32,000 nucleotides of DNA from Clostridia bacterium. GTDB taxonomy: Bacteria > Bacillota > Clostridia > Christensenellales > Aristaeellaceae. A model generated the notes under the pieces. That model was not told where the DNA came from and ran no database searches. It was given only the letters and a program-made list of their open reading frames with translations. A program made the position numbers and the translations under genes. Where the stretch lies: the NCBI GenBank assembly GCA_045599485.1, contig JAZRWA010000038.1:7436-39435 (forward strand), read 5' to 3'. This document shows, piece by piece, positions 4,188 to 32,000 of this stretch (position 1 is its first letter; each line of letters begins with the position of its first letter).

Positions 4188-5483
4188 TCAGCGGCTTTTG
4201 TGCGTTCTGATGCGGGCTTCGCTGCCTTGGTCGCTCGGTTCATAGTACACATGATCGCGGACCTCGTCGGGCAGATACTGCTGCTCCACCCAGTGCCCGG
4301 GAAAATCATGCGGATACAGATAGCCTTTGCCGCTCTACAGGCGTTCCGCCCCCGCGTAATGGGTATCCCGCAGCGGCACAGGCACATCGCCCGAGGCTTT
4401 TTCGGCATCCGCCATGGCGGCATCAATGGCACAGACAACGCTGTTGCTTTTGGGGCTTTCGCAGACAGCAATGATCGCCTGGGCGATGGAGAGCCGTGCT
4501 TCGGGCATGCCGACCAATTCCAAGGCTTCACCGGCCGCCACGGCCTGCAGCATGGCTGCCGGGTTAGCGAGCCCCACATCCTCGCTGGCGTGGGCGATCA
4601 CGCGCCGCACGATCATCCGCGGATCGACCCCCGCATAGATGAGCCTTGCAAACCAGAACAGGGCGGCATCGCTGTCCGAGCCGCGAAGGCTTTTGCAGAA
4701 AGCCGACAACATATCATAATACAGGCTGTCATCACAGCGGATGACGGGCTTCTGGATGCTTTCCTACGCCGTTTCAAGGGTGATGCGGATGCCATTGCGC
4801 CCCGTGGGCGTGGTCAGTGCCGCCAGCTCCAGGGCATTGAGCGCCATGCGGACATCGCCGTTGGACACGTTGACAAAATGCTGCAGGGCATCCTCGTCCA
4901 GCTGCACATTCATTTCACCAAGTCCGCGATCCTTGTCCTTCAGGGCGGAGAGCAGAATGGCACGCATATTATCCTGCGTCAGGGGACGGAAGGCAAACAG
5001 CCTGCAGCGGCTGACGATAGCGGGCGTCATAGCCACCATGGGGTTTTCGGTGGTGGAGCCGATAAAGCGGATGATGCCCTCCTCGATGGCGGGCAGCACG
5101 CTGTCGGACTGCGCCTTGCTCCAGCGATGACACTCATCCAACAGAAGATAGGTCGCCTGACCGTACATGGCACGGCGTTCCCTGGCTTCCTACAGCACCT
5201 TGCGCACATCCGCCACGCCGGAGGTGACGGCGTTGAGCCGCACGAAGGCCGAACGCGTCTGCGCGGCGATGACATGCGCCAGCGTGGTCTTGCCGCAGCC
5301 GGGAGGCCCCCAGAAAATGCTGCTGGTCAGCCGGTCCGCCTCCACAGCGCGGCGAAGCAGCTTGCCGGGAGCCAGCAGATGCTCCTGGCCGAAAAACTCA
5401 TCGAGGCTGCGAGCCCGCATGCGCTCTGCCAACGGGGTGTTCTTTTTGATGTTATCCTGTTCCAGTGCATCCAGTAAGCTCAT
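4188..5483 (-). CDS. rarA: replication-associated recombination protein A (AAA+ ATPase, MgsA/RarA/WRNIP1 family) with three in-frame TAG codons
   Basis: Track ORFs 5190..5483, 4764..5168 and 4335..4712, plus an unlisted tail, are all in one frame of 432 codons. The pieces are: ...GPPGCGKTTLAHVIA...VRKVL-TAG-EARERRAMYGQATYLLLDECHRWSKAQSD...ITLETA-TAG-ESIQKPVIRCDDSLYYDMLSAFCKSLRGSD...HYAGAERL-TAG-SGKGYLYPHDFPGHWVEQQYLPDEV...THKSR-TGA. Walker A, Walker B (LLLDECHRW), sensor and C-terminal MgsA motifs are all present in order. Confidence 0.85.
4335..4337 (-). other. in-frame TAG codon 3 in rarA
   Basis: Minus strand ctg TAG agc. Same frame. It is followed by 48 more codons (SGKGYLYPHDFPGHW...) that match the conserved RarA C-terminus, then TGA at 4188..4190. 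Confidence 0.85.
4764..4766 (-). other. in-frame TAG codon 2 in rarA
   Basis: Minus strand gcg TAG gaa. Same frame as start 5483. Confidence 0.85.
5190..5192 (-). other. in-frame TAG codon 1 in rarA
   Basis: Minus strand ctg TAG gaa. Its offset from start 5483 is a multiple of 3. Confidence 0.85.
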
Positions 5484-6247
5484 GATTCATCCTCTACGGT
5501 CAGGTGCGCCACGCAGCCGTTTTTGCCCCATGTCCACAGGTGACTGCGGCTTCCGACGGCGCATTCCATGTGCAGCATGGCAATGCCGTCATCCACCATG
5601 TGCCGCTTGGAATCATTGAGACGCAGGGTATGGTGACCGTAATTCATGTGCCAGGGCTGGGAGTTGACCGCAGAAGGGGCCACGCGCACCGCCTCCGCCG
5701 CCTGATATGCCCAGTTGGGCCACTGTTCGGGCGGTGTGCCGCACATGCGCTGCAGTGGATGACGCTTGCGGATGGGCGCGTCGGGATTTTCGGGCACCCC
5801 CACGGGAATGACGGCGACGATCTTTTCCCCCGCTTCGCACAGCGGCCTGACCTTGGCCTTTTTATAGGTACCGGCCACCCAGCAGGTCGCAAGACCCATG
5901 GCAGCGGCTTCCAGCACAAACGCTTCACCGCTCATGCCGGCGTACAGCAGTCCGAACGGATCGTTCTTTTTTCGCAGGACGACCGCGCATTTGCCGGTGC
6001 CCTCAATGCGTCCCACAAACGGCAGACCCGAGAAAAAGCCCTTGGGGCAATCCATCAGCACGATGCGGGTGCCGGGCATGGAGACCGCCGCCGCTGTTTT
6101 TTTAAGTGCCTCCAGCTGTTCCTCATCGGGGGAAGAAGCATAGGCGCGGCAGCTGCAGCGGTGTTTTAAGGACTGCATCCAGCGTTCCCGCTGTTCCTGC
6201 GTGAAAAAACCGTTCAGCAGGCAGCCATCATCAATCTTTGATCTCAT
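5480..6247 (-). CDS. nitroreductase family protein
   Basis: 255 aa ORF containing the SAVNSQPW motif and a C-terminal fold typical of nitroreductases. Its stop overlaps the rarA start (ATGA). The start is uncertain: M1 at 6247 overlaps the upstream gene by 17 nt, and an internal Met (MQSLKH) is possible. Confidence 0.65.
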   Translation of the reverse strand: MRSKIDDGCLLNGFFTQEQRERWMQSLKHRCSCRAYASSPDEEQLEALKKTAAAVSMPGTRIVLMDCPKGFFSGLPFVGRIEGTGKCAVVLRKKNDPFGLLYAGMSGEAFVLEAAAMGLATCWVAGTYKKAKVRPLCEAGEKIVAVIPVGVPENPDAPIRKRHPLQRMCGTPPEQWPNWAYQAAEAVRVAPSAVNSQPWHMNYGHHTLRLNDSKRHMVDDGIAMLHMECAVGSRSHLWTWGKNGCVAHLTVEDES

Positions 6248-8119: not shown

Positions 8120-8184
8120 AAAAAAGCAGACAAAGAAGTCCGTTTTCTTTGTTATATTTATTTTTATACGGTATAGATGGAGGG

Positions 8185-9513
8185 ATGACCGTGCACGACA
8201 TCCAAGCGCTGAGCGGGCACGCCGATGCCATCAACGAGCTGCTGGCCCGTTACGGCGTTAAATTCGGCATCTACAAAAACGGCGTATTCAAAGAACAGCT
8301 GTTCCCCTTTGACGCCATTCCGCGCGTCATTGAGGCAGAGGATTTTGCCGTTCTCGAAAAAGGTCTCAAGCAGCGTGTCACAGCGCTCAATGCCTTCATC
8401 GCCGATATCTACGGTGAAAAGAAGATCATCCGGGACAAAGTCGTTCCCGAAGAATTTGTGTTCGGCAGCCCGGGGTACCTTTTGCAGTGCGAGGGACTGA
8501 AGCCCCCCAAGGGCATCTGGTCCCACATCAGCGGCATCGACCTGGTGCAGGCCAAGGATGGCAGCTGGTACATTCTGGAGGATAATCTTCGTGTGCCCTC
8601 CGGTGCCTCCTACCCCATGATCGCCCGTGAGCTCAGCCGCCGCGCCGCGCCCCGCACCTTCCAGAACAATGCCGTGGCCGAAAACCGCGATTATGCCGAA
8701 CTGCTCAAGGCAACCATGGACCATGTCAACACCGGCGGCATCAATGTGATCCTCACTCCCGGCCGTTACAACGCCGCCTATTTTGAGCACAGCTATCTGG
8801 CGGAAAAGACCGGCGCCCGGCTGGCCAGCGGCAGCGAGCTGACGGTGGAGGACGGCCGCCTGTACTTCATCGGCTACACCGGCAAAAAAGAGCCCGTCGG
8901 CACGGTGTACCGCCGCATTTCCGATGATTTCCTTGATCCCATGAATTTCCGCGCGGATTCGCTCATCGGCATTCCGCACATCTTTGACGCCTTCCGCTCC
9001 GGCAATGTGGCGCTGATGAACGCCCCTGGCAACGGCGTGGCGGATGACAAGGGCATCTACTATTTTGTGCCCAAAATGGTCCGTTATTATCTGAACGAGG
9101 AACCCATTCTGCAAAATGCCCCCACCTATCTGCCCTTCTATGACGAGGACATGAAATATGTGCTCGATCACTTTGACACGCTGGTGCTCAAGGATGTAGC
9201 AGAAGCCGGCGGCTACGGCGTGGTGTTTGGCAGCAAGATGACGGCACAGCAGAAGGAAGACTTTATCGCCCTGCTCAAAAAGGACCCCCGCCGCTTCATC
9301 GCCCAGGAGGTCATCGACTTCCGCGATCTGGACATCATTGAAAACGGCGAAGCCGTTCCCCGCAAGGCCGATTTGCGCGCCTTTGTGCTGATGGGCAGTG
9401 AGCCCATGGTATGGAAAAGCGGCCTGACTCGTTTCTCCCGCAATCCCGATTCCTTTATCGTCAACAGTTCTCAGGGAGGAGGCTTTAAGGATACATGGGT
9501 ATTATCTCGCTGA
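8185..9513 (+). CDS. circularly permuted type 2 ATP-grasp protein (DUF404/DUF407 family)
   Basis: Track ORF 8149..9513. The AT-rich first 12 codons are probably leader. GGAGGG directly abuts ATG 8185, so GTG 8191 is an alternative start. Family hallmark SGIDLVQAKDGSWYILEDNLRVPSGASYPMIAR is present. Ends in TGA. Confidence 0.8.
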   Translation: MTVHDIQALSGHADAINELLARYGVKFGIYKNGVFKEQLFPFDAIPRVIEAEDFAVLEKGLKQRVTALNAFIADIYGEKKIIRDKVVPEEFVFGSPGYLLQCEGLKPPKGIWSHISGIDLVQAKDGSWYILEDNLRVPSGASYPMIARELSRRAAPRTFQNNAVAENRDYAELLKATMDHVNTGGINVILTPGRYNAAYFEHSYLAEKTGARLASGSELTVEDGRLYFIGYTGKKEPVGTVYRRISDDFLDPMNFRADSLIGIPHIFDAFRSGNVALMNAPGNGVADDKGIYYFVPKMVRYYLNEEPILQNAPTYLPFYDEDMKYVLDHFDTLVLKDVAEAGGYGVVFGSKMTAQQKEDFIALLKKDPRRFIAQEVIDFRDLDIIENGEAVPRKADLRAFVLMGSEPMVWKSGLTRFSRNPDSFIVNSSQGGGFKDTWVLSR

Positions 9514-10157
9514 TCAACGCCGACAAGCTGTACTGGCTTGGGCGCTATACCGAACGTGTATATACCACCTTGCGGCTCTTTGCGCAAAGCTTTGACAAGC
9601 TGATCGACACCGACCAGCTGGCGTATAACAGCTTTTGCGCCGCGGTGGAGATCCCCGCCATCTACACCTCGGGCGAGGATTTTGTGGAGCGTTATCTGTT
9701 TGACCCCGACGATCCCAACTCCGTGCTGTCCAACCTGACCCGTGCCTTTGACAACGCCGTCACCCTGCGTGAAGAGATCGGCAGCGAATGCGTCAGCTAC
9801 ATTCAGCTGGCCATCTACGCCATCAACAAGGCACACGGCAGCCAAAGCCTGCTCGTGGACCTGCAGCATGTGATCGACCACATTCTTTCCTTCTGGGGAC
9901 TGGCGGATGACCTGATCCCCGATGAAAATGTGCGCAACATCATCAAGACCGGCAAGCGTGTGGAGCGGCTCGACCTGTATGCCCGCCTGCACCAGTCCCG
10001 TGAGGAGCTGCAGCGCGAGCTGTACCGTCTGACCGACCGCATCACCCGCACCAGTCTTTCCTACAATGTGGAGCATCTGTCTCTTTTGAAAATACTGGTC
10101 AATCTGAACGATATACCGTATAATGATATTGTGGAGCAGGTAGAAGGCCTGATCTGA
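9495..10157 (+). CDS. alpha-E domain-containing protein (DUF403)
   Basis: 220 aa, with N-terminal ADKLYWLGRYTERVYTTLRLF matching the alpha-E signature (YWlGRY.ER). It overlaps the upstream gene by 19 nt. Confidence 0.75.
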   Translation: MGIISLINADKLYWLGRYTERVYTTLRLFAQSFDKLIDTDQLAYNSFCAAVEIPAIYTSGEDFVERYLFDPDDPNSVLSNLTRAFDNAVTLREEIGSECVSYIQLAIYAINKAHGSQSLLVDLQHVIDHILSFWGLADDLIPDENVRNIIKTGKRVERLDLYARLHQSREELQRELYRLTDRITRTSLSYNVEHLSLLKILVNLNDIPYNDIVEQVEGLI

Positions 10158-10190
10158 AATCAAGCATCTGAAAAGGGGAGGAAATGTGTG

Positions 10191-10973
10191 ATGATCCGTC
10201 GGCTGGGGTTTTCTTTTCAGCTGGGGCTCACCTTTTCCTCCTCTGTTTGCTGTCACCGTTTTACCCTGCGGTGCATGCCGCAGACCACCCCGCTGCAGCA
10301 GCCGGAGGACATCAGCATCACCCTGGAGCCCAACTGTCCGTACTGGATCGGCCGTGATTACGCCGGTCTGAAGCTGCTCGGCTTCGCCCGGGAAGCCCAC
10401 ACAGCACTGAAGCTGACCGTCAGCGGCATCGTGGCGAACGAGGACCCTTCAAAGGGACTTTCCCTTCTTGCAGGAGAGCCGTTGGGGGCTTTTTCCCTGC
10501 AGACGCCGCTGACTATGCCCGGCCCCGCCCTGCGGACGCTTCATGGCATGCTGCCTGTTTTTTCCGACGCGGAGGCGACAGCGCTGTCCATCATGGACTT
10601 GCTGGCGGAGCGTTTTTGCTACACGCCGGGGGCCACCGAAAGCGGCACCGCCGCCGAGGCCGCTGCCCAGGCCATGCAGGGCGTATGTCAGGATGAAGCG
10701 CACATCATGCTGTCGCTTCTTCGCCTGCGCGGCATTCCCTGCCGTTATGTGGTGGGCTTTATGGCAGGCGAAGGGGCCTCCCATGCCTGGGTGGATGTGC
10801 TCCTGCGTGACAGCTGGCAAAGCTTTGACCCCACCAATCACCGCAGGATTACCGCCGATTACATCCGTGTTTCCCACGGACTGGACGCCAATGACTGCCC
10901 CTTGAACCGCGGGCTGTTTACCGGCACTGCCGTACAGGATGGCAGCAGTACAGCGCAAGTATGGGAGGTTTGA
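10191..10973 (+). CDS. transglutaminase-like cysteine protease family protein
   Basis: Carries the GVCQDEAHIMLSLLRLRGIPCRYVVGF...SHAWVDV...SFDPTN Cys-His-Asp arrangement of transglutaminase cores. RBS GGGGAGG. GTG 10188 is an alternative start. Confidence 0.75.
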   Translation: MIRRLGFSFQLGLTFSSSVCCHRFTLRCMPQTTPLQQPEDISITLEPNCPYWIGRDYAGLKLLGFAREAHTALKLTVSGIVANEDPSKGLSLLAGEPLGAFSLQTPLTMPGPALRTLHGMLPVFSDAEATALSIMDLLAERFCYTPGATESGTAAEAAAQAMQGVCQDEAHIMLSLLRLRGIPCRYVVGFMAGEGASHAWVDVLLRDSWQSFDPTNHRRITADYIRVSHGLDANDCPLNRGLFTGTAVQDGSSTAQVWEV

Positions 10974-10976
10974 CTG

Positions 10977-11939
10977 ATGATCCGCAGCACCCTTATCACC
11001 GTCACCGAAGTCGGACTGCCGGTGGATGAAAAACTGTATATCCGCAAAAACCGCATTGAGCCCGAAAGCGGCTCCAACGGCCGCCGCATCAGCATTGTGA
11101 CCGGCATCCACGGCGATGAGCTGGAAGGACAATATGTCTGCTGGCAGGTGCAGCAGCGCATTGCCGCCCACCCCGAATGCCTGCTGGGGACCGTGGACAT
11201 CTATCCTGCCATGAATCCCTTCGGCATCGAATCGGTCAGCCGCGGCATTCCCGCCTTTGATCTGGATATGAACCGCATCTTTCCGGGCAGCGAGGAAGGC
11301 GACATGAATGAGTATATCGCCTCCCGCATCGTGCATGATCTGGAAGGCAGCACGCTGGCGATCGATATTCATGCCTCCAACATTTACCTGACCGAGATCC
11401 CCCAGATCCGCATCAATGAGAACAGTGCCGAAAGGCTGGTGCCCATCGCGCAGAAGGCCAATGTGGATTTTATCTGGGTACACGGTGCCTCCACTGTGCT
11501 GGAAGCCACGCTCGCCCACAGCCTCAACAGCCGCGGTGTGGATACCCTGGTGGTGGAAATGGGCGTGGGCATGCGCATCACCAAGGAATACGGCGATCAG
11601 CTGACCGAAGGTATCTTCAGTCTGATGAAGGAACTGAATATCTGGAGTGGCGAAACAACGCCGGTCCGTACGCCCATCATCTCCTCCGACCCCAATGAAG
11701 TGGAATTTTTGAACGCCCCCGCCGCCGGCGTATTTGTCAAAACGCTGTCGCACGGCGCTATACTGAAAAAGGGGGATGAGATCGGCCTGATCATCGATCC
11801 CTTGAGCGGCAAAACGCTGTACCCTGTGCTTTCCCCCTGCAACGGCTGGCTGTTTACCGTACGTGAATACCCCATTGTCGATCAGGGATCGCTGATGGCA
11901 CGCATCCTAAAAAGGGAGATCGGAGGGCTGCCGCAATGA
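10977..11939 (+). CDS. succinylglutamate desuccinylase/aspartoacylase (AstE/AspA, M14-like) family protein, zinc ligands intact
   Basis: 320 aa with VTGIHGDELEG (HxxE), NRIFPG and AIDIHAS motifs. It starts 3 nt after the upstream stop. Confidence 0.75.
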   Translation: MIRSTLITVTEVGLPVDEKLYIRKNRIEPESGSNGRRISIVTGIHGDELEGQYVCWQVQQRIAAHPECLLGTVDIYPAMNPFGIESVSRGIPAFDLDMNRIFPGSEEGDMNEYIASRIVHDLEGSTLAIDIHASNIYLTEIPQIRINENSAERLVPIAQKANVDFIWVHGASTVLEATLAHSLNSRGVDTLVVEMGVGMRITKEYGDQLTEGIFSLMKELNIWSGETTPVRTPIISSDPNEVEFLNAPAAGVFVKTLSHGAILKKGDEIGLIIDPLSGKTLYPVLSPCNGWLFTVREYPIVDQGSLMARILKREIGGLPQ

Positions 11940-12868
11940 AAAAAGAGATCTTGTTTGAGATTCCCGGCATTTACCGGGACGCCTTCCGTGTGACCGGTTA
12001 CACCTTCGGCGAAGGAGAAAAAGCCCTGTGCATCGTGGGCAGCATGCGCGGCAACGAAAACCAGCAGCTGTACTGTGCCTCCCGTCTGGTGGCCCGGCTG
12101 AAACGGCTTGAAGAGGATGGCAGGCTGATCGAGGGACAGCAGATCCTGGTCATTCCCTGCGTCAACCCCTACTCCATCAATACCAAGCGCCGCTTCTGGT
12201 GCATTGACAACACCGATATCAACCGCATGTTTCCCGGCTATGACGCAGGCGAAACCACCCAGCGCATTGCCGCGGGCGTGTTTGAGCAGATCAAGGATTA
12301 CCGCTACGGCGTACAGTTTGCTTCCTTTTATATGCCCGGCGCGTTTGTGCCGCACATCCGCATGATGAAGACGGGCTACGAGGATCCGCAGCTGGCGGCT
12401 GAGTTTGGCTTGCCTTATGTGGTCGTGCAGCCGCCGCGTCCCTTTGACACCGCCACCCTCAACTACAACTGGCAGATCTGGGGCGTACACGGCTTCTCCC
12501 TTTACACCACCAACACCGCCCGCATTGATACCGAAAGCGCTCAGCAGGCGGAGGACGCCGTGCTGAACTTTATGTCCCGCCGGGGCATCATCCATTACCG
12601 TGCGCATGGCGGCTACCGTTCCGAGATCGTGCAGGGCGAGGACATGGTCAGCCTTCGTGCCGCGACCTCCGGCTTTCTGCAGTGCCTGGTCAAGCCCGGG
12701 CAGCGGGTGGAAAAGGGGCAATTGCTGGCCAACATCCTCGATCCCTACGAGGGTAGTATCCGTTCCGAGCTGCGTGCCCCCGTTTACGGCGTGGTCGCGT
12801 TTGCCGGCGATGAACCCATGACGTACGAAAACACCGCCGTGCTGAAGCTGATCCCCGAAGTGGAATAA
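11936..12868 (+). CDS. AstE/AspA (M14-like) family paralogue with degenerate metal-binding motifs
   Basis: 310 aa with 4-nt ATGA overlap on the upstream gene. It keeps NRMFPG. It has VGSMRGNENQ where the paralogue has TGIHGDELEG, and VQFASF where the paralogue has IDIHAS. Confidence 0.7.
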   Translation: MKKEILFEIPGIYRDAFRVTGYTFGEGEKALCIVGSMRGNENQQLYCASRLVARLKRLEEDGRLIEGQQILVIPCVNPYSINTKRRFWCIDNTDINRMFPGYDAGETTQRIAAGVFEQIKDYRYGVQFASFYMPGAFVPHIRMMKTGYEDPQLAAEFGLPYVVVQPPRPFDTATLNYNWQIWGVHGFSLYTTNTARIDTESAQQAEDAVLNFMSRRGIIHYRAHGGYRSEIVQGEDMVSLRAATSGFLQCLVKPGQRVEKGQLLANILDPYEGSIRSELRAPVYGVVAFAGDEPMTYENTAVLKLIPEVE

Positions 12869-12917: not shown

Positions 12918-15422
12918 TCAGCCCTCCGTTTTGCGGCTGCCGGGCTTTTTCAGGCTTTCGGCAACGGGCTTTTTGAGCAGATCATAATAGTAATCCACAT
13001 ACGCGGCAATGCTTTCCGCCGTATCCCAATCATCGAGCAGCGTCACATACCCCTGCAGTGAGGCAGCCTTCGCCCGCAATGCGCGGGAAGAGGCGCCGAT
13101 AAAGGTACGGCTCAGATAGCGGCTGTTTTTGGCATCCTGAATCAGGTTGGAGGCCGCCGCATTGCCGTCCAGGGCGATGATGACCGAAGGACGGCGCTTG
13201 AAGATCTCAAATGCGACACTCTTGTACACTCCCTGCGGGGAGGATTCGAGCGCCACCCGCACCTTGACACCGCTCTTTTGCAGGCGTATCCGTTCGGCTT
13301 CGCTGATCTGTGCCGGAACGAAGGCAAATACCGGCAGATCCGCCCCCGCCTTGTCCAGAATATAGCGCTCGTAACCGCCAAGAGACGGGCCGATGACCAC
13401 AAAGAATTTGCCGCTCCCGGCTCTTTTGAGCAGATCATCCAACAGTCGGCAATCCGCCTCCCGAAGGCGGGTACGGCGAACGGCGTTGTTGAAGCTGCCG
13501 CCCGCGAGCACCACCGGTACACGATCCTACGGCAGCGGAACGATCTGCGCCTTCAACGCATCGGCACTGGCAAGCCGCCCTGTATCAAACAACTGGATCG
13601 TTCCTGTATCCTGCAGGATGCGGTCACGGTAGAACGCCGCTTCCGTGCCCTCCGCGCACTGCGCACGAAAGGCGGTTTTTTTCTGTTCAAACGCCTGCAT
13701 GGACCCTTCGATGATCTCTTTTTCCGCCTGCCGCATGCGCAGCAGCTCCGCATCGGTCAATTCCAGCATACGCTCCAGTGAAAGCTGCTCATCGATGGAA
13801 TCGGTACCGTAAAGCGCGCCGCCATCGGTACCCTGCACGCAGTAGATGCCCGCGTTCAGATACTGCCGCAGCGGATGCCGGCTCAGCCGGGACAGATTGT
13901 TGAGGCGCACGTTGGAGGTGATCTGAAATTCCAGCACTGCCTGCCTGCGCCGCAGCAGTTCCAGCAGCGACCGACCCTTTTCGCTTTTCAGGTTGGCGGT
14001 GTAAAGGCCGTGACCGATGCGTACATGCGGGAAAGCCTGCCCCGGCAGCAGCGCTTTTTCGACTGAAAGCAGGCTGTTGAGCACGTTGTCGGGCAGGGCG
14101 TCGTTTTCGCCGGCGTGGAGACGCACCACAAAGGACGGATGCTCCCGGGCGATGCGCAGCACCGTGTTCATCACCGGCTGCAATTCCCGGATATCGTTCA
14201 TTTCCTCGCCCACAAAATCGCTGCCCGCCACATAGGGGCCGCCGGCGACCGCCCGCAGCACGCGCAGGTTTTCGTCATAGGGGTTTTCCGGCAGACCGCC
14301 GGTGCGCCCCATCATCAGGGGGATGCGCCGCAGCGCCGCCAGAAAGCGCAGCGTTACCCCGGTTTCCTCCGTCACGGCGGGCATGACAGCATGAATCTGC
14401 GCAAGCGTTTCCGGCGCTTCGGACGCCTTTACCAGCGCGGTATCGGAGATCTCGGCATAATGGACACCGCTGCGCCGATAGCTGCGGGCGACCCACAGCA
14501 GCGTATCCTGATACAGGGTATTTTTGCCGTAAACCGGGTGTTTTCGATCCGTTTCCATCTGTCTGAGGGCTGCGATGATGTCCGCATCAGGCAGGGAATC
14601 GATGTTTTTCAGCTCAATTCTGTCTTCCGCGGGCGTGCCCTTGGTGAATACATAACGGTACAGATACACCTTTTCCAGATCGGTAAACACCGCCTGGCCA
14701 TCCTTCAGCACCGCCAGCGAGGCCCGCACCCGCGGAATATTGTAGGCGCTGTGTTCATTCATCATCAGCGCGGCAAAATTGATGAAGGTGTTGTCATCAA
14801 ACAGCCGCTCCCGGTATTTGCCCTGAAGAGTGATATCGCCCAGTTTTTCCTCCGTGGCGCTTCTGCGGGTCTCCATCAGGCGCTGCTGCTCCTCCGAAAG
14901 ACGCAGTCCCAGCTTTTTGATATAATAATAGGGATAACGCAGCTGATGATGGATGCCCAGCGCGATGAGCAGATCGGGGCTGAGGTTGCCGCTGCGATGG
15001 CTGTGCAGATCGGAACGGAATTTCAATTCCTCACGGATGTAGGTCTTGACCAGCGTTTTATGCCGGTCCAGCTCGTACTCCTTGGTCTGGCTCATCAGCG
15101 TTTTGGCAATGGCGGGGATGGCCGCCCGGCGCTCGATCTGACCGTCGGGATAAATGTTGGCCACCTTGGTATCGGCAAGCCGCAGGATATACACCCGGCG
15201 GTTTTCGCCGTCCACATAGCACGGCACCTCGCCGCGGATCTGCTTCAGGCCGTTTTCATCAAAGCTGACCGGCAGACCGCACACCGCCGCAAGGTTGCTG
15301 ATCAGGTTGCCTGTGCCGTGGTTGGGCGTGCGCAGCACATAAAAGAGCCGTTCCCCTTCCATCATCAGCGACACGATGATATCTTTCTCTTTATCCAGAT
15401 ACAGCGTTCCGAATGGCTTCAT
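12918..15422 (-). CDS. adenosine/AMP deaminase-family (amidohydrolase) protein fused, across an in-frame TAG, to a C-terminal Rossmann-like (possibly SLOG/LOG-like) domain
   Basis: Track ORFs 13527..15527 and 12918..13514 are in the same frame (835 codons from MKPFGTLYL at 15422, GGAGGA RBS). Deaminase motifs present: SDLHSHRSG (HxH), RLHAGEN, RIGHGLY, VQGTDGGALYGTD. The junction reads ...KAQIVPLP-TAG-DRVPVVLAGGSFNN...VVIGPSLGGYERYILDKA...IIALDGNAAASNLIQDAK... Ends in TGA. Alternative reading: two genes, with the second starting at GTG 13514. Confidence 0.6.
13527..13529 (-). other. in-frame TAG at the deaminase / C-terminal-domain junction
   Basis: Minus strand ccg TAG gat. Both flanking ORFs share the frame (13529-13514 = 15 nt). 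Confidence 0.7.
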
Positions 15423-15473
15423 TTTTCCTCCGTTCTCCGGCTCATTTCCGACCCCGTCCCCAGCCCGAAACCG

Positions 15474-15506
15474 ATAAAAAACGCCCGCGGAAATGCCCGC
15501 GGACGA
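15474..15506 (-). terminator. intrinsic terminator downstream of the malic enzyme gene
   Basis: Minus strand CGTCCGCGGgcatttCCGCGGGCGtttttt: a 9-bp stem (one G-U pair) plus a T-run, immediately after the TAA. Confidence 0.7.
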
Positions 15507-15514
15507 TCGTTTTT

Positions 15515-16702
15515 TTATTCTTCGCACAGCGGCAGGCGTGCCACACCGCTCTCCACAGCGGCTTTCGCCACTGCCTTGGCGACCGCCGGTCCCACGCGGG
15601 GATCAAAGGCCAGCGGCAGGATGTATTCTTTTGTCAGTTCCTTGTCCGAGACCAGCTCCGCCAGGGCAAAGGACGCCGCGCGCTTCATGGCCTCGTTGAT
15701 GTCCCTCGCGCGCACATCCAGTGCTCCGCGGAAAAGCCCCGGGAAGGCCAGCACGTTGTTGATCTGGTTGGGATAGTCGCTGCGTCCTGTGCCCACCACC
15801 GCGGCACCGGCGGCAAGAGCCTCATCGCGGCTGATCTCCGGCACAGGATTGGCCATGGCAAATACGATGGGATCTTTGGCCATGGAGGCCACCATCTCAC
15901 GGCTCACCACGTTGGGAGCGCTGACGCCGATGAACACGTCCGCGCCCTTCATGGCGTCCGCCAGCAGACCGCTCATCTTTTCGGGGTTGGTTTTGCGCGC
16001 CATTTCCAGCTGGGCAGGGTTCATTTCGACCGCGCCCTCGCACAGGATGCCGTAGCGGTCCACCATTTTCAGATGACGGATGCCCAGGCTCATCAGATGG
16101 GTGCCGATGGCAATGCCGGCGCTGCCCGCGCCGTTGATGACCACTCTGGCGTCCTCCATCGTGCGGCCCGTCGCCTTCAGGGCGTTGATCATCGCAGCTG
16201 CCACCACGATGGCGGTGCCATGCTGATCATCGTGGAAAACGGGGATGTCGCACACTTCCTTCAGCTTGCGTTCGATTTCAAAGCAGCGCGGCGCCGCAAT
16301 ATCTTCCAGATTGATGCCGCCAAAGGATCCGGAGATCAGGTACACCGTACGCACGATCTCATCCACGTCCTTGCTGCGCACGCAGATGGGGAAGGCGTCC
16401 ACATCGCCAAAGGCCTTGAACAGGGCGCATTTGCCCTCCATCACAGGCATGCCGGCTTCGGGGCCGATATCGCCCAGGCCCAGCACAGCGGTGCCGTCCG
16501 TCACCACCGCCACCAGATTATGACGGCGGGTCAGTTCAAAAGACTGGTCGTAATCCTTTTGTATTTCAAGGCAGGGCTGCGCCACACCGGGCGTGTAGCA
16601 CAGGGAAAGATCCTCGCGGCTTTTGATCTCCACTGTGGATTTGATCTCGATCTTGCCGCCCCATTCCCGGTGCAGGCGAAGCGATTCCTTTGCGTAATCC
16701 AT
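15515..16702 (-). CDS. NAD(P)-dependent malic enzyme (oxaloacetate-decarboxylating malate dehydrogenase)
   Basis: 395 aa: [22 protein letters not shown]...YTPGVA...[16 protein letters not shown]...GGINLEDI...[10 protein letters not shown], the canonical short malic enzyme. GGAGGA RBS. Ends in TAA. Confidence 0.9.
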
Positions 16703-16753
16703 TCGTTTTGTCCTCCGTCACAGGATCCGCGGGGATCCTTTTTTCACCCTATC

Positions 16754-16762
16754 AGTATACCA
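16754..16762 (-). promoter_or_regulatory. candidate extended -10 (TGgTATACT) for the malic enzyme gene
   Basis: The minus strand reads tttaTGgTATACTgat about 50 nt upstream of the ATG. The -35 is weak. Confidence 0.3.
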
Positions 16763-16901
16763 TAAACGCTCCCCTTTGAAAACGATTTGCGCAAAAAATA
16801 CCCATCCGGAACGCGTTTGTATAATCTGGTATAAGTATTTCCATTTTGCAAATTTAATTGTTTCTAAATTGCATTTTTTATTTATTCCTATTAGAATTAT
16901 C

Positions 16902-23614: not shown

Positions 23615-23624
23615 AGGTACGACA

Positions 23625-23709
23625 ATTCCAAGGGGTGCTGGCTCTGCCGGCTGAGATGAACCAAGGTTCGAACCCTCAAACCTGATCCGGGTAATACCGG
23701 CGTAGGAAT
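23625..23709 (+). promoter_or_regulatory. TPP (THI-box) riboswitch aptamer
   Basis: attccaaGGGGTGCtgg...ggCTGAGAtgaa...ACCCtcaaACCTGATCCGGGTAATACCGGCGTAGGAAt matches the conserved THI element (GGGGUGC, CUGAGA, ACCUGAUC.GG.UAAU.CC.GCGUAGGAA). P1 is formed by attcc/ggaat. Confidence 0.9.
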
Positions 23710-23732
23710 GCGAGTAAAGTGCTTTTGATGTG

Positions 23733-23803: not shown

Positions 23804-24439
23804 ATGTTTTCTAAGTTTGCCAAGATTCTCCCCTCCGTCTGGGGTCTGCTCGCCGCTCTGGCCGTGGTGGGCGTTGTGCTGTACTGCATGAAGGGCTCCC
23901 GCACCAAGTGGACCGCCCGTATGCTGGCCAATGCCGCCATCTCCATCGCTCTGGCCTCCGTGCTGTCCTACATCCGCCTCTACAAGCTGCCGCAGAACGG
24001 TTCCATCACCGTTGCCTCCATGCTGCCCATCTTCATGTTTGCCTATGCCTACGGCGTGGGCCCCGGCCTGTTTGTGGGTCTGGCCTATGGCTTTGTGCAG
24101 TGGATGCAGGATGGTTTCTGGATGCTGACCCCTGTGGAGGGCGTCATGGACTATCTGCTGGCCTTCGCCGTGCTGGGTCTGTGCGGTCTGTGTCGCAAGC
24201 TGCCCAAGCAGTATGCGCTGCCCGTCGGCTGCATCGTGGGTGCCCTGGCCCGTGCCATCGTCGCCATCACCGCCGGTGTTATCTTCTTTGCGGAAAACGC
24301 CCCCGTGGGCCAGTCCGCCCTCGTGTACTCCATGGGCTACAACGGTCTGTACCTGATCCCCGACACTGCCATCTGCGTGGTGCTGGCCTTCATTCCCCAG
24401 ATCCGCGACCTGGCCCACAAGCTGTCCCTGAATCGCTGA
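23804..24439 (+). CDS. thiT: energy-coupling factor transporter S component ThiT (thiamine)
   Basis: 211 aa multi-TM protein directly downstream of a TPP riboswitch. ThiT-like sequence (ISIALASVLSYI..LP.GGS.T...LPI). RBS AAAGGAGG. Confidence 0.8.
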   Translation: MFSKFAKILPSVWGLLAALAVVGVVLYCMKGSRTKWTARMLANAAISIALASVLSYIRLYKLPQNGSITVASMLPIFMFAYAYGVGPGLFVGLAYGFVQWMQDGFWMLTPVEGVMDYLLAFAVLGLCGLCRKLPKQYALPVGCIVGALARAIVAITAGVIFFAENAPVGQSALVYSMGYNGLYLIPDTAICVVLAFIPQIRDLAHKLSLNR

Positions 24440-28839: not shown

Positions 28840-28941
28840 TGAAAAACCTTCCTTTTGTGTTGTTTCACTCTATATAACGGACCATATGCCGTCCTTGTTG
28901 CAAGAAGAATGATTGTTTACAATTGTCGTTTCAAAGCACAC

Positions 28942-31168: not shown

Positions 31169-32000
31169 TTATCTTTTTTTATTTGCACCCGGTCGGGAGC
31201 GCGTCAGCCGCTCCTCATGCCCGCGCGGGGGCTGCACCAGGCAGCCCGGCCCGTAACCGATCAGGTCTTCCCGCCCGCAGTTGCGCAGGGCCTCGCGGAT
31301 GAGCGCAAAATTCTACGGTTTTTTCCATTGCAGCAGCGCACGCTGCATATCCTTTTCTTTCTGTGTGGTAGGTACATATACCGGCTTCATCGTTCTCGGG
31401 TCAATGCCGGTATAATACATACAGGTGCTCAGCGTGCCCGGTGTCGGATAAAAATCCTGCACCTGCTCGGGCTGCACGCCCTTACGCTTCAGGTACAACG
31501 CCAATTCGACAGCATCCCGCATGGTACTGCCGGGATGGCTGCTCATCAGATAGGGCACCAAAAACTGCTTCATGCCCAGCTGACGGTTCACCTGTTCATA
31601 CTGGCGGCAGAACTCCTCGTACACCGCGTTGCGGGGTTTACCCATACACTGCAGGGTGTGATCGGCAATGTGCTCCGGCGCTACCTTCAATTGTCCGCTG
31701 ATGTGGTGCGCGCAGAGCTCCCGCATTACCCGCTGACGATCCTTGTCCGCCAGAATGTAGTCAAACCGCAAGCCCGATCGGATAAACACCTTTTTGATGC
31801 CCGGAATTTGCCGCATCCGCCTCAGTGTGTGCAAAAAATCCTCATGACTGACTTCCATGTTGGGACAGGGCTCGGGGAACAGACACTGCCGGTTCGGGCA
31901 ACAGCCATGCTGCAGCTGTTTTTTGCAAGCAGGCTTGCGGAAATTCGCCGTCGGTCCGCCCACATCGTGGATGTACCCCTTGAAGTCGGGGAAGGTGGTC
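31169..32000 (-). CDS. ygiQ: YgiQ family radical SAM protein (UPF0313), C-terminal part, with one in-frame TAG (5' end beyond the right window edge)
   Basis: Track ORF 31313..31963 (..[16 protein letters not shown]...VAPEHI...LMSSHPGST...ALLQWKKP) stops at a TAG. The same frame continues [31 protein letters not shown]... for 47 codons to TAA at 31169..31171. I translated this base by base and it resembles the conserved YgiQ C-terminal tail. Confidence 0.8.
31313..31315 (-). other. in-frame TAG codon in ygiQ
   Basis: Minus strand ccg TAG aat. It lies 144 nt (48 codons) upstream of the TAA in the same frame. Confidence 0.8.

Follow-up and report, generated by a model that had tools for sequence, protein, structure and literature searches.

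In this study, we analysed a 32-kb stretch of DNA from a Clostridia bacterium (32,000 nucleotides of contig JAZRWA010000038.1, hereafter the window), in which the frame of a gene for an adenosine-deaminase-like protein is interrupted by a TAG codon. Our results make it probable that TAG is a reassigned sense codon in this genome, standing most likely for glutamate (Glu), and that the gene specifies one protein of 834 amino acids (aa). On the evidence of sequence comparison, ribosomes would read this TAG, codon 632 of the gene, as an amino acid. The architecture of the protein, a deaminase followed by a SLOG-like domain, is that of the family in bacteria that use the standard code, and the position of the TAG near a domain boundary is incidental. 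What makes the window interesting is its code, along with the turnover of TAG positions that can be seen among close relatives; the junction itself adds little.

The deaminase gene and its homologues

The gene is encoded on the minus strand, and the following features bear on its reading:

12918..15422, minus strand: whole deaminase gene, 834 codons from ATG 15422 through one in-frame TAG to TGA 12918-12920; from N- to C-terminus, the product consists of a beta-rich domain, an adenosine-deaminase domain, a helical linker and a SLOG-like domain
13527..13529, minus strand: in-frame TAG, codon 632 (cta on the plus strand), in the context ccg-TAG-gat; taken as sense, probably Glu
15427..15431, minus strand: GGAGG Shine-Dalgarno sequence, 4 nt before ATG 15422, read directly from the sequence
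15482..15505, minus strand: terminator-like hairpin (10 pairs and a T-run), between the malic-enzyme gene, which it directly follows, and the start of the deaminase gene
13512..13528, minus strand: alternative start proposed earlier, AGGA 13528-13525 with GTG 13514-13512; rejected

Read on the minus strand from 15527, the frame reaches the TAG at 13527-13529 through ...ALKAQIVPLP and continues as DRVPVVLAGGSFNN... to the TGA at 12918-12920, and the junction in translation reads ...KAQIVPLP-TAG-DRVPVVLAGGSF... The joined product of 834 aa is thus made up of 631 + 1 + 202 aa. Its upstream part of 631 aa begins at ATG 15422-15420, which is likely the start of the gene, and the 202 codons of the downstream part follow in an unchanged frame past the TAG up to the TGA. 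The hairpin at 15482-15505 suggests that the deaminase gene is its own transcription unit. The initial annotation of this DNA had described a TAG lying in frame between a deaminase open reading frame (ORF) and a part of about 200 aa ending in TGA, which we confirmed on the minus strand; it also pointed to a GTG at 13514 and, 10 nt upstream, an AGGA, both of which are present in the sequence. The chance of a 202-codon open frame at the local base composition is about 1e-3. A chance origin of this frame is nonetheless irrelevant, because the downstream part matches homologues, down to E=5e-67.

Querying with the joined protein gave more than 5,400 homologues, in which the two parts form a single polypeptide of about 826 aa. 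The best 120 of these are 791-896 aa long, cover 95-100% of the query and come, by name, from Dorea, Oribacterium, Clostridia and Atopobiaceae. We aligned 87 standard-code homologues of 791-896 aa, and all 87 are continuous at the junction column, with no gap. The column of codon 632 is variable (L in 16, E in 14, V in 13, T in 11, A in 8, and others) and holds a sense codon in every homologue. In the same alignment P636, G641, G642 and S643 never vary and P631 is near-invariant; hence, conservation extends across the TAG. When the downstream 202 aa were searched separately, 20 relatives were found, and those that reach upstream pass uninterrupted through the junction with the pattern LP-x-DR[IV]P[IV]V[LIV]AGGSFNN. 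Among the GTDB representative genomes, the gene is a single ORF of 844 aa in the cultured, standard-code Sharpea azabuensis DSM 18934 and a single ORF of 826 aa in a Lachnospiraceae metagenome-assembled genome (MAG). Moreover, tblastn matches span the junction in loci of Sharpea porci, Solobacterium and Erysipelotrichaceae. Altogether, standard-code relatives encode the two parts as one polypeptide, and the single 834-aa fusion that the initial annotation had offered as its sense-codon option is supported both by the 87 gap-free homologues and by the Sharpea azabuensis ORF. Orthologues consistently arranged as two genes did not appear, and there was no true split among the homologues examined.

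Several apparent splits were considered and set aside. The one near the junction in L036 (protein P0005) corresponds to a 10-N scaffold gap, and the short C-terminal products P0009, P0010 and P0020 are cuts at contig ends in standard-code contigs. In L002 (ENA ERZ28655200 scaffold_32524) the deaminase homologue is garbled at about 1000-1190: the frame is lost after IHAGENDSLP, a TAGTAGTAGTAG run follows, and the gene then continues in a different frame. We treated this as probably an assembly artefact. L002 comes from the same project as L036, the sequence with the 10-N gap at the junction. A further locus, L035 (Logan SRR1221442_64458, 871-1725), carries a 284-aa gene made up of the last deaminase helices and the SLOG-like domain only. 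Its product is 63% identical to the window protein, and a divergently oriented gene lies directly upstream. This gene may be a stand-alone version, a rearrangement or an assembly chimera.

TAG codons in the window and in related genomes

We took as the gene set of the window the genes supported by GC content at third codon positions (GC3), with TAG read as sense. Six in-frame TAGs occur in its 9,710 codons, three of them in RarA and one each in a metallophosphoesterase, the deaminase and YgiQ. None of the genes is broken by TGA or TAA. The 28 complete genes stop at TGA (19) or TAA (9) and never at TAG, an outcome with P = 0.002 if one fifth of stops were TAG; stop and TAG usage was sampled here from the 32-kb window and from 21 kb of the contig L001 described below, and describes these samples rather than the genome. 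As the initial annotation had anticipated, a split gene would make the junction TAG the sole TAG terminator of the window. The frequency of TAG in the window is 0.62 per 1000 codons, equal to 0.9% of the Glu codons.

Two close relatives allow the fate of individual codons to be followed: L005, from the Logan run SRR27361835, and L006, contig JAKSQG010000025.1 of a Clostridia bacterium MAG from horse faeces. Both share synteny with the window, with proteins 91-96% identical in amino-acid sequence. The TAGs outside the deaminase gene are listed below, the RarA codons being compared between the window and L005:

5190..5192, minus strand: RarA/MgsA codon 99 (numbered in the stop-to-stop frame), between Walker A and Walker B; TAG in the window and TAG in L005
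4764..4766, minus strand: RarA codon 241; TAG in the window, orthologous codon GAG in L005
4335..4337, minus strand: RarA codon 384; TAG in the window, orthologous codon GAA in L005
2458..2460, plus strand: metallophosphoesterase TAG; 17 of 33 homologues have E in this column, among them the closest one (P0142)
31313..31315, minus strand: TAG of the YgiQ/DUF3362 radical-SAM gene, which extends beyond the window; the column (K in 21, E in 8, A in 4, D in 4) is not diagnostic

The RarA gene (4188-5486, minus strand) carries its three TAGs in the AAA+ core, and the corresponding columns hold Q/E (codon 99), E/T and G/G/N in PDB homologues. Three TAGs within this ATPase core argue, as far as sequence can, for efficient decoding of TAG. 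They tell more than the deaminase junction, which the initial annotation had overrated in calling it the most informative local test between full reassignment and leaky suppression. The TAG at RarA codon 99, common to the window and to the independent L005 assembly, also excludes assembly error as the source of the TAGs. A seventh TAG (28870-28872, minus strand) lies in the frame of an SH3_3-domain protein, about 11 codons upstream of the likely start (MKKIM..., a signal peptide), and was not counted as coding.

In the deaminase gene, the three genomes compare as follows:

Codon 632 (junction): TAG in the window, CAG in L005, CAG in L006
Codon 178: GAG in the window, GAG in L005, TAG in L006
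Penultimate codon: GAG in the window, TAG in L005, GAG in L006

Hence, the window, L005 and L006 have one TAG each in this gene, at three different positions, with neither a frameshift nor any other stop. Parsimony derives two of these three TAGs from GAG. Of the five informative orthologous codons in the two genes, four specify Glu (GAG or GAA) and one, the junction CAG, specifies glutamine (Gln). There are no indels among the three deaminase orthologues, and the ratio of nonsynonymous to synonymous substitution rates (dN/dS) is 0.10-0.12 upstream of the TAG and 0.028-0.054 downstream of it. On the window branch, the part downstream of the TAG has undergone 39 synonymous and 6 nonsynonymous changes. 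This low dN/dS and the excess of synonymous changes are unlike a pseudogene.

A far more heavily recoded sequence was found in L001 (ENA ERZ27234649 k141_229653), a 149-kb contig of which 20.9 kb were examined. Its genes are fragmented under the standard code, and long frames are restored when TAG is read as sense. The deaminase homologue of L001 has six TAGs, five of which fall on columns that are E in 87, 87, 83, 87 and 87 of the 87 standard-code homologues. TAG occurs 39 times in 6,343 codons of this contig, that is, 6.2 per 1000 or about 10% of Glu codons, roughly ten times the density in the window. The TAG-bearing genes include those for Ffh, TrmD, RimM, ABC ATPases and a YceG-like protein; in an ABC ATPase, the TAG after the H-loop aligns to D or E in PDB chains. 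All 18 gene frames, for which TGA and TAA alone were allowed as stops, end at one of these two codons. In a comparison of the deaminase genes, L001 is nearer to standard-code Dorea-like sequences than to the window. Judged from these sequences, L001 may be a second recoded lineage, either independent or older; because it is not the nearest relative of the window by the deaminase gene, recoding may have had either one origin or two. The assignment of TAG to Glu, as one consistently aligned amino acid, is firmer for L001 than for the window lineage.

A further candidate, L037 (GCA_964261755.1, CAXVQW010014281.1), had been picked up through short YgiQ products on long contigs. There, the genes for YgiQ, histidinol dehydrogenase and IGPD are frameshifted (8983-10861 and 14976-16863), which mimics recoding in tables of gene length. 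L037 is an indel-prone assembly with no TAG recoding and was rejected as a recoded genome.

Domains of the protein and gene neighbourhood

Three segments of the deaminase protein were delimited:

15078..15422, minus strand: beta-rich domain at the N-terminus (aa 1 to about 115), without a match in Pfam; strands at 2-98 in the AlphaFold2 (AF2) model of P0022, conserved FYLDKEKD motif
13677..14489, minus strand: segment matching Pfam A_deaminase PF00962 (E=1.7e-15)
12921..13526, minus strand: C-terminal SLOG-like Rossmannoid domain, aa 633-834, after the TAG; supported by fold and dN/dS

The PF00962 match scores 57.4 bits against a curated cut-off of 27. Numbered along the 834-aa protein, the residues invariant in the family are H140/H142, H436-A-G-E439, G-H471-G and D533, of which H140/H142 lie upstream of the matched segment. 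From their positions, H140/H142, H436-A-G-E439, H471 and D533 would be the usual zinc-binding and catalytic residues. With Foldseek, the deaminase barrel matches adenosine deaminases (probability 1.00), ADAL and Cad1. The protein thereby belongs to the adenosine/AMP deaminase superfamily (PF00962), the roles of its motifs being assigned by inference. Its deaminase scores in NCBIfam are far below the equivalog cut-offs and therefore do not assign a substrate.

The full-length AF2 model was made on P0022, a protein 93% identical to the one studied here, with 88 sequences, and reached a mean predicted local distance difference test score (pLDDT) of 82 and a predicted template modelling score of 0.79. 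It comprises a beta-rich N-terminal domain, the deaminase barrel, a long helix, a low-confidence linker (607-613) and an alpha/beta domain at the C-terminus. Residue 632 falls in a stretch with pLDDT of about 93, some 20 residues beyond the linker and 3 before strand beta-1 (635-640), between the near-invariant P631 and the invariant P636. The TAG had been placed exactly at a domain junction. That it lies near the boundary holds true; that it lies exactly on it does not, as the model puts residue 632 past the linker.

When modelled alone, the C-terminal domain (pLDDT 86) folds into seven beta-alpha units, which bears out the earlier description of a Rossmann-like second domain. Foldseek matched it to TRPM4 MHR, DprA, the Moco carrier protein, ShosA and the LOG-like proteins TT1887/TM1055, with TM-scores of 0.5-0.62 and E-values of 1e-4 to 4e-2. 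The GGS directly after beta-1 is invariant in the alignment of 87 homologues, and the domain has no match to a Pfam or NCBIfam profile. We assign it by its modelled fold alone to the SLOG-type Rossmannoid domains.

The SLOG-like domain probably binds a nucleotide. In the Thoeris effector ThsA, SLOG has been described as the domain that senses the ligand (PMC11204291). By analogy with ThsA (SIR2-SLOG) and Cad1 (CARF-adenosine deaminase), in both of which a nucleotide-sensing Rossmannoid domain is likewise fused to a nucleotide-modifying enzyme, the domain may sense a nucleotide-derived ligand and control the deaminase. The likeness has limits. The putative sensor is C-terminal and SLOG-like here, whereas that of Cad1 is an N-terminal CARF domain, and unlike ThsA and Cad1 the present family is very widespread (more than 5,400 members). 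PADLOC, run on the window, gave a weak CARF_ADA match over the deaminase part only and assigned no system; in addition, no defence genes were found near the deaminase gene, whose neighbours are metabolic. The adjoining cluster (8122-12868, plus strand), which is syntenic in L005 and L006, encodes a circularly permuted ATP-grasp protein, an Alpha-E protein, a transglutaminase-core protein and two AstE/AspA-like proteins. Elsewhere, the sole Rfam match in the window is a thiamine pyrophosphate (TPP) riboswitch (23621-23725, plus strand; RF00059, 78 bits), just upstream of the gene of a multi-pass membrane protein (23804-24439) that we take to be a ThiT-like thiamine transporter.

Alternative readings and a candidate UAG code

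The TAG could be a leaky stop that works as a switch, the cell making a 631-aa deaminase without the SLOG-like domain next to the 834-aa protein in a regulatory ratio. The rarity of TAG in the window would fit inefficient decoding held low by selection, and truncation ahead of the C-terminal domain would leave the deaminase domain intact in the AF2 model. We consider such a switch improbable. The stop is not conserved, being CAG even in the two close relatives, which are 91-93% identical, and a sense codon in all 87 homologues; the column is variable; the RNA fold around the TAG is not significant (minimum free energy z = -1.8, with 12 of 200 shuffled sequences folding equally well); and the TAGs of the sister genomes fall at positions in the deaminase gene that are not boundaries. 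Furthermore, inefficient readthrough of three TAGs in the RarA core would cut the yield of the full-length protein multiplicatively, and none of the 28 complete genes of the window terminates at TAG. Hence, we found no support for the two isoforms that the initial annotation had envisaged. A true stop, either in a gene split into a deaminase gene and a SLOG gene starting at GTG 13514 or in a recent nonsense pseudogene, is very improbable. The standard code does offer this GTG with its weak AGGA 10 nt upstream, and a public protein collection contains the 198-aa product called from it (P0001). However, a start at this GTG would leave out P636, which is invariant, together with the conserved segment LPxDR[IV]P, and the AGGA is part of the codons TAG-GAT, which are CAG-GAT in L005 and L006, so that it is coding there. 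No genuine split homologue exists among those examined, the L036 case being a scaffold gap, and purifying selection on the downstream part is very strong. The independent start is contradicted by these data. At the junction we detected no significant readthrough-stimulating RNA structure, no internal promoter or promoter-like site and no terminator. A true stop would moreover require five further nonsense events in conserved genes within 32 kb, all of them TAG, without TGA, TAA or frameshift damage, as well as the independent TAGs in the deaminase genes of L005 and L006.

It is also conceivable that TAG is sense in the window lineage and stands for an amino acid other than Glu, either pyrrolysine or Gln, the amino acid inserted in phage code 15 and by supE-type suppressors. 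L005 and L006 have CAG at the junction, from which TAG is a single transition away, and codon 99 of RarA aligns to Q in one PDB homologue; the meaning of TAG in this lineage is read from five orthologous codons and one family column. We regard this as unlikely, given that four of the five codons are GAG or GAA, that the metallophosphoesterase column is mostly E (17/33), and that five TAGs of L001 fall on columns with 95-100% Glu, although L001 is not the nearest relative by the deaminase gene. Pyrrolysine is disfavoured by the genes concerned, which are those of RarA, the metallophosphoesterase, the deaminase and YgiQ and not methylamine methyltransferases, with no tRNA in the window. Phage code 15 is at odds with chromosomal housekeeping genes that accompany a TPP riboswitch and with aligned residues that are Glu.

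Reassignment of TAG to Glu, the reading that we prefer, would call for a tRNA with the anticodon CUA charged with Glu. The simplest route to such a tRNA would be a C36-to-A change in tRNA-Glu(CUC), a single-base step that mirrors the GAG-to-TAG changes observed among the codons. The TAG at codon 632 would likewise stem from one base change in a CAG or GAG codon that stood at a variable position. Release factor 1 (RF1) would be lost or disabled, leaving release factor 2 (RF2) to terminate at TGA and TAA; these two, the predicted RF2 codons, end every complete gene counted.

Some of our results weigh against this reading. With ARAGORN, the window and the loci L001, L002, L005 and L006 yielded no tRNA at all, and the few tRNAs in the other loci scanned included none with a CUA anticodon. 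A guessed anticodon arm of tRNA-Glu(CUA), ACCGCCCTCTAANGGCGGT, had 17 matches in metagenome contigs, none of them within a tRNA. Moreover, the junction codon of both closest relatives encodes Gln and not Glu, and the junction alone cannot give the inserted amino acid because its column is variable. Finally, TAG as rare as in the window would also be expected if its decoding were tolerated but inefficient, and some termination at TAG may persist.

On balance, the sequences incline us to think that the window samples a natural bacterial code with UAG as Glu that occurs in two or more Clostridia-like lineages from the gut, which have reached very different stages. An early stage would be represented by the window lineage, together with the horse-faeces MAG and the Logan contig; here TAG, having disappeared from gene ends, would only be beginning to return to coding sequence. 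L001 would stand for an advanced stage, with about 6 TAGs per 1000 codons, some at invariant Glu positions.

Stop codons read as Glu are known from nuclear codes, since UAR means Glu in peritrich ciliates (NCBI table 30; that of Blastocrithidia is table 31). The reading of UAR as Glu has been described in Blastocrithidia nonstop (PMC12153298). These codes share with the present case a stop read as Glu, in-frame TAGs at conserved Glu positions and an interchange of TAG and GAG. Unlike here, they belong to eukaryotes with eRF1 and reassign both UAA and UAG; in our bacterium only TAG would be affected, as TAA ends 9 of the 28 genes. In bacteria, loss of the cognate release factor and a tRNA with a changed anticodon have been described as the signature of UGA reassignment (PMC13462651). 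As in the bacterial codes 4 (UGA as Trp) and 25 (UGA as Gly), a stop would become sense genome-wide while the two remaining stops end all genes; in contrast to them, the codon would be UAG and not UGA, the factor expected to be lost RF1 and not RF2, and the amino acid a different one.

The 2021 Codetta study gives all known bacterial stop reassignments as UGA (PMC8629427). A 2026 preprint on about 2.7 million assemblies of bacteria and archaea lists TAG reassignment in no bacterium and treats TAA/TAG-to-Glu signals in archaeal assemblies as contamination (10.64898/2026.04.02.715157). Our own search of the literature, among open papers, likewise returned no report of a bacterial TAG reassignment or of UAG read as Glu. 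In gut phages that use code 15, TAG has been reported to be read as Gln by suppressor tRNAs (PMC9523058, PMC10879173). The likeness is that amber serves as sense in gut-associated genomes. The differences are that code 15 concerns phage genomes and Gln, in a recoding thought to time late-gene expression, whereas the window holds chromosomal housekeeping genes (ArgS, RarA, malic enzyme, ABC transporters), the TPP riboswitch and TAGs aligned with Glu. That bacteria are viable without RF1, and that UAG can be read by a suppressor tRNA, is known from the RF1-deleted, TAG-free Escherichia coli C321.deltaA and from classical amber suppressors. Like C321.deltaA, the window has no gene with a TAG stop; unlike that engineered strain, it would come from a natural lineage in which TAG is starting to re-enter coding sequence.

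For annotation, the consequences are immediate. Translation with table 11 breaks the 834-aa enzyme into a deaminase of 631 aa and an orphan hypothetical protein of 198 aa (P0001), and RarA into four pieces in the window and two in L005; all genomes of these lineages would be mis-annotated in the same way. If the lineage indeed decodes UAG as Glu without RF1, it would also point to a natural solution of tRNA and synthetase that is relevant to genetic-code engineering.

If our reading is correct, this would be, so far as we could find, the first case in bacteria of amber reassigned to a canonical amino acid, and a natural UAG-to-Glu code would show that the codon of RF1 can also be captured in these organisms. 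The small number of TAGs in the window lineage, their differing positions among sister genomes and their location mostly opposite GAG would offer a direct view of early codon capture. Together with L001, these genomes would form a living series for the capture of a stop codon, which bears on the long-standing question of whether reassignment proceeds through disappearance of the codon or through an ambiguous intermediate.

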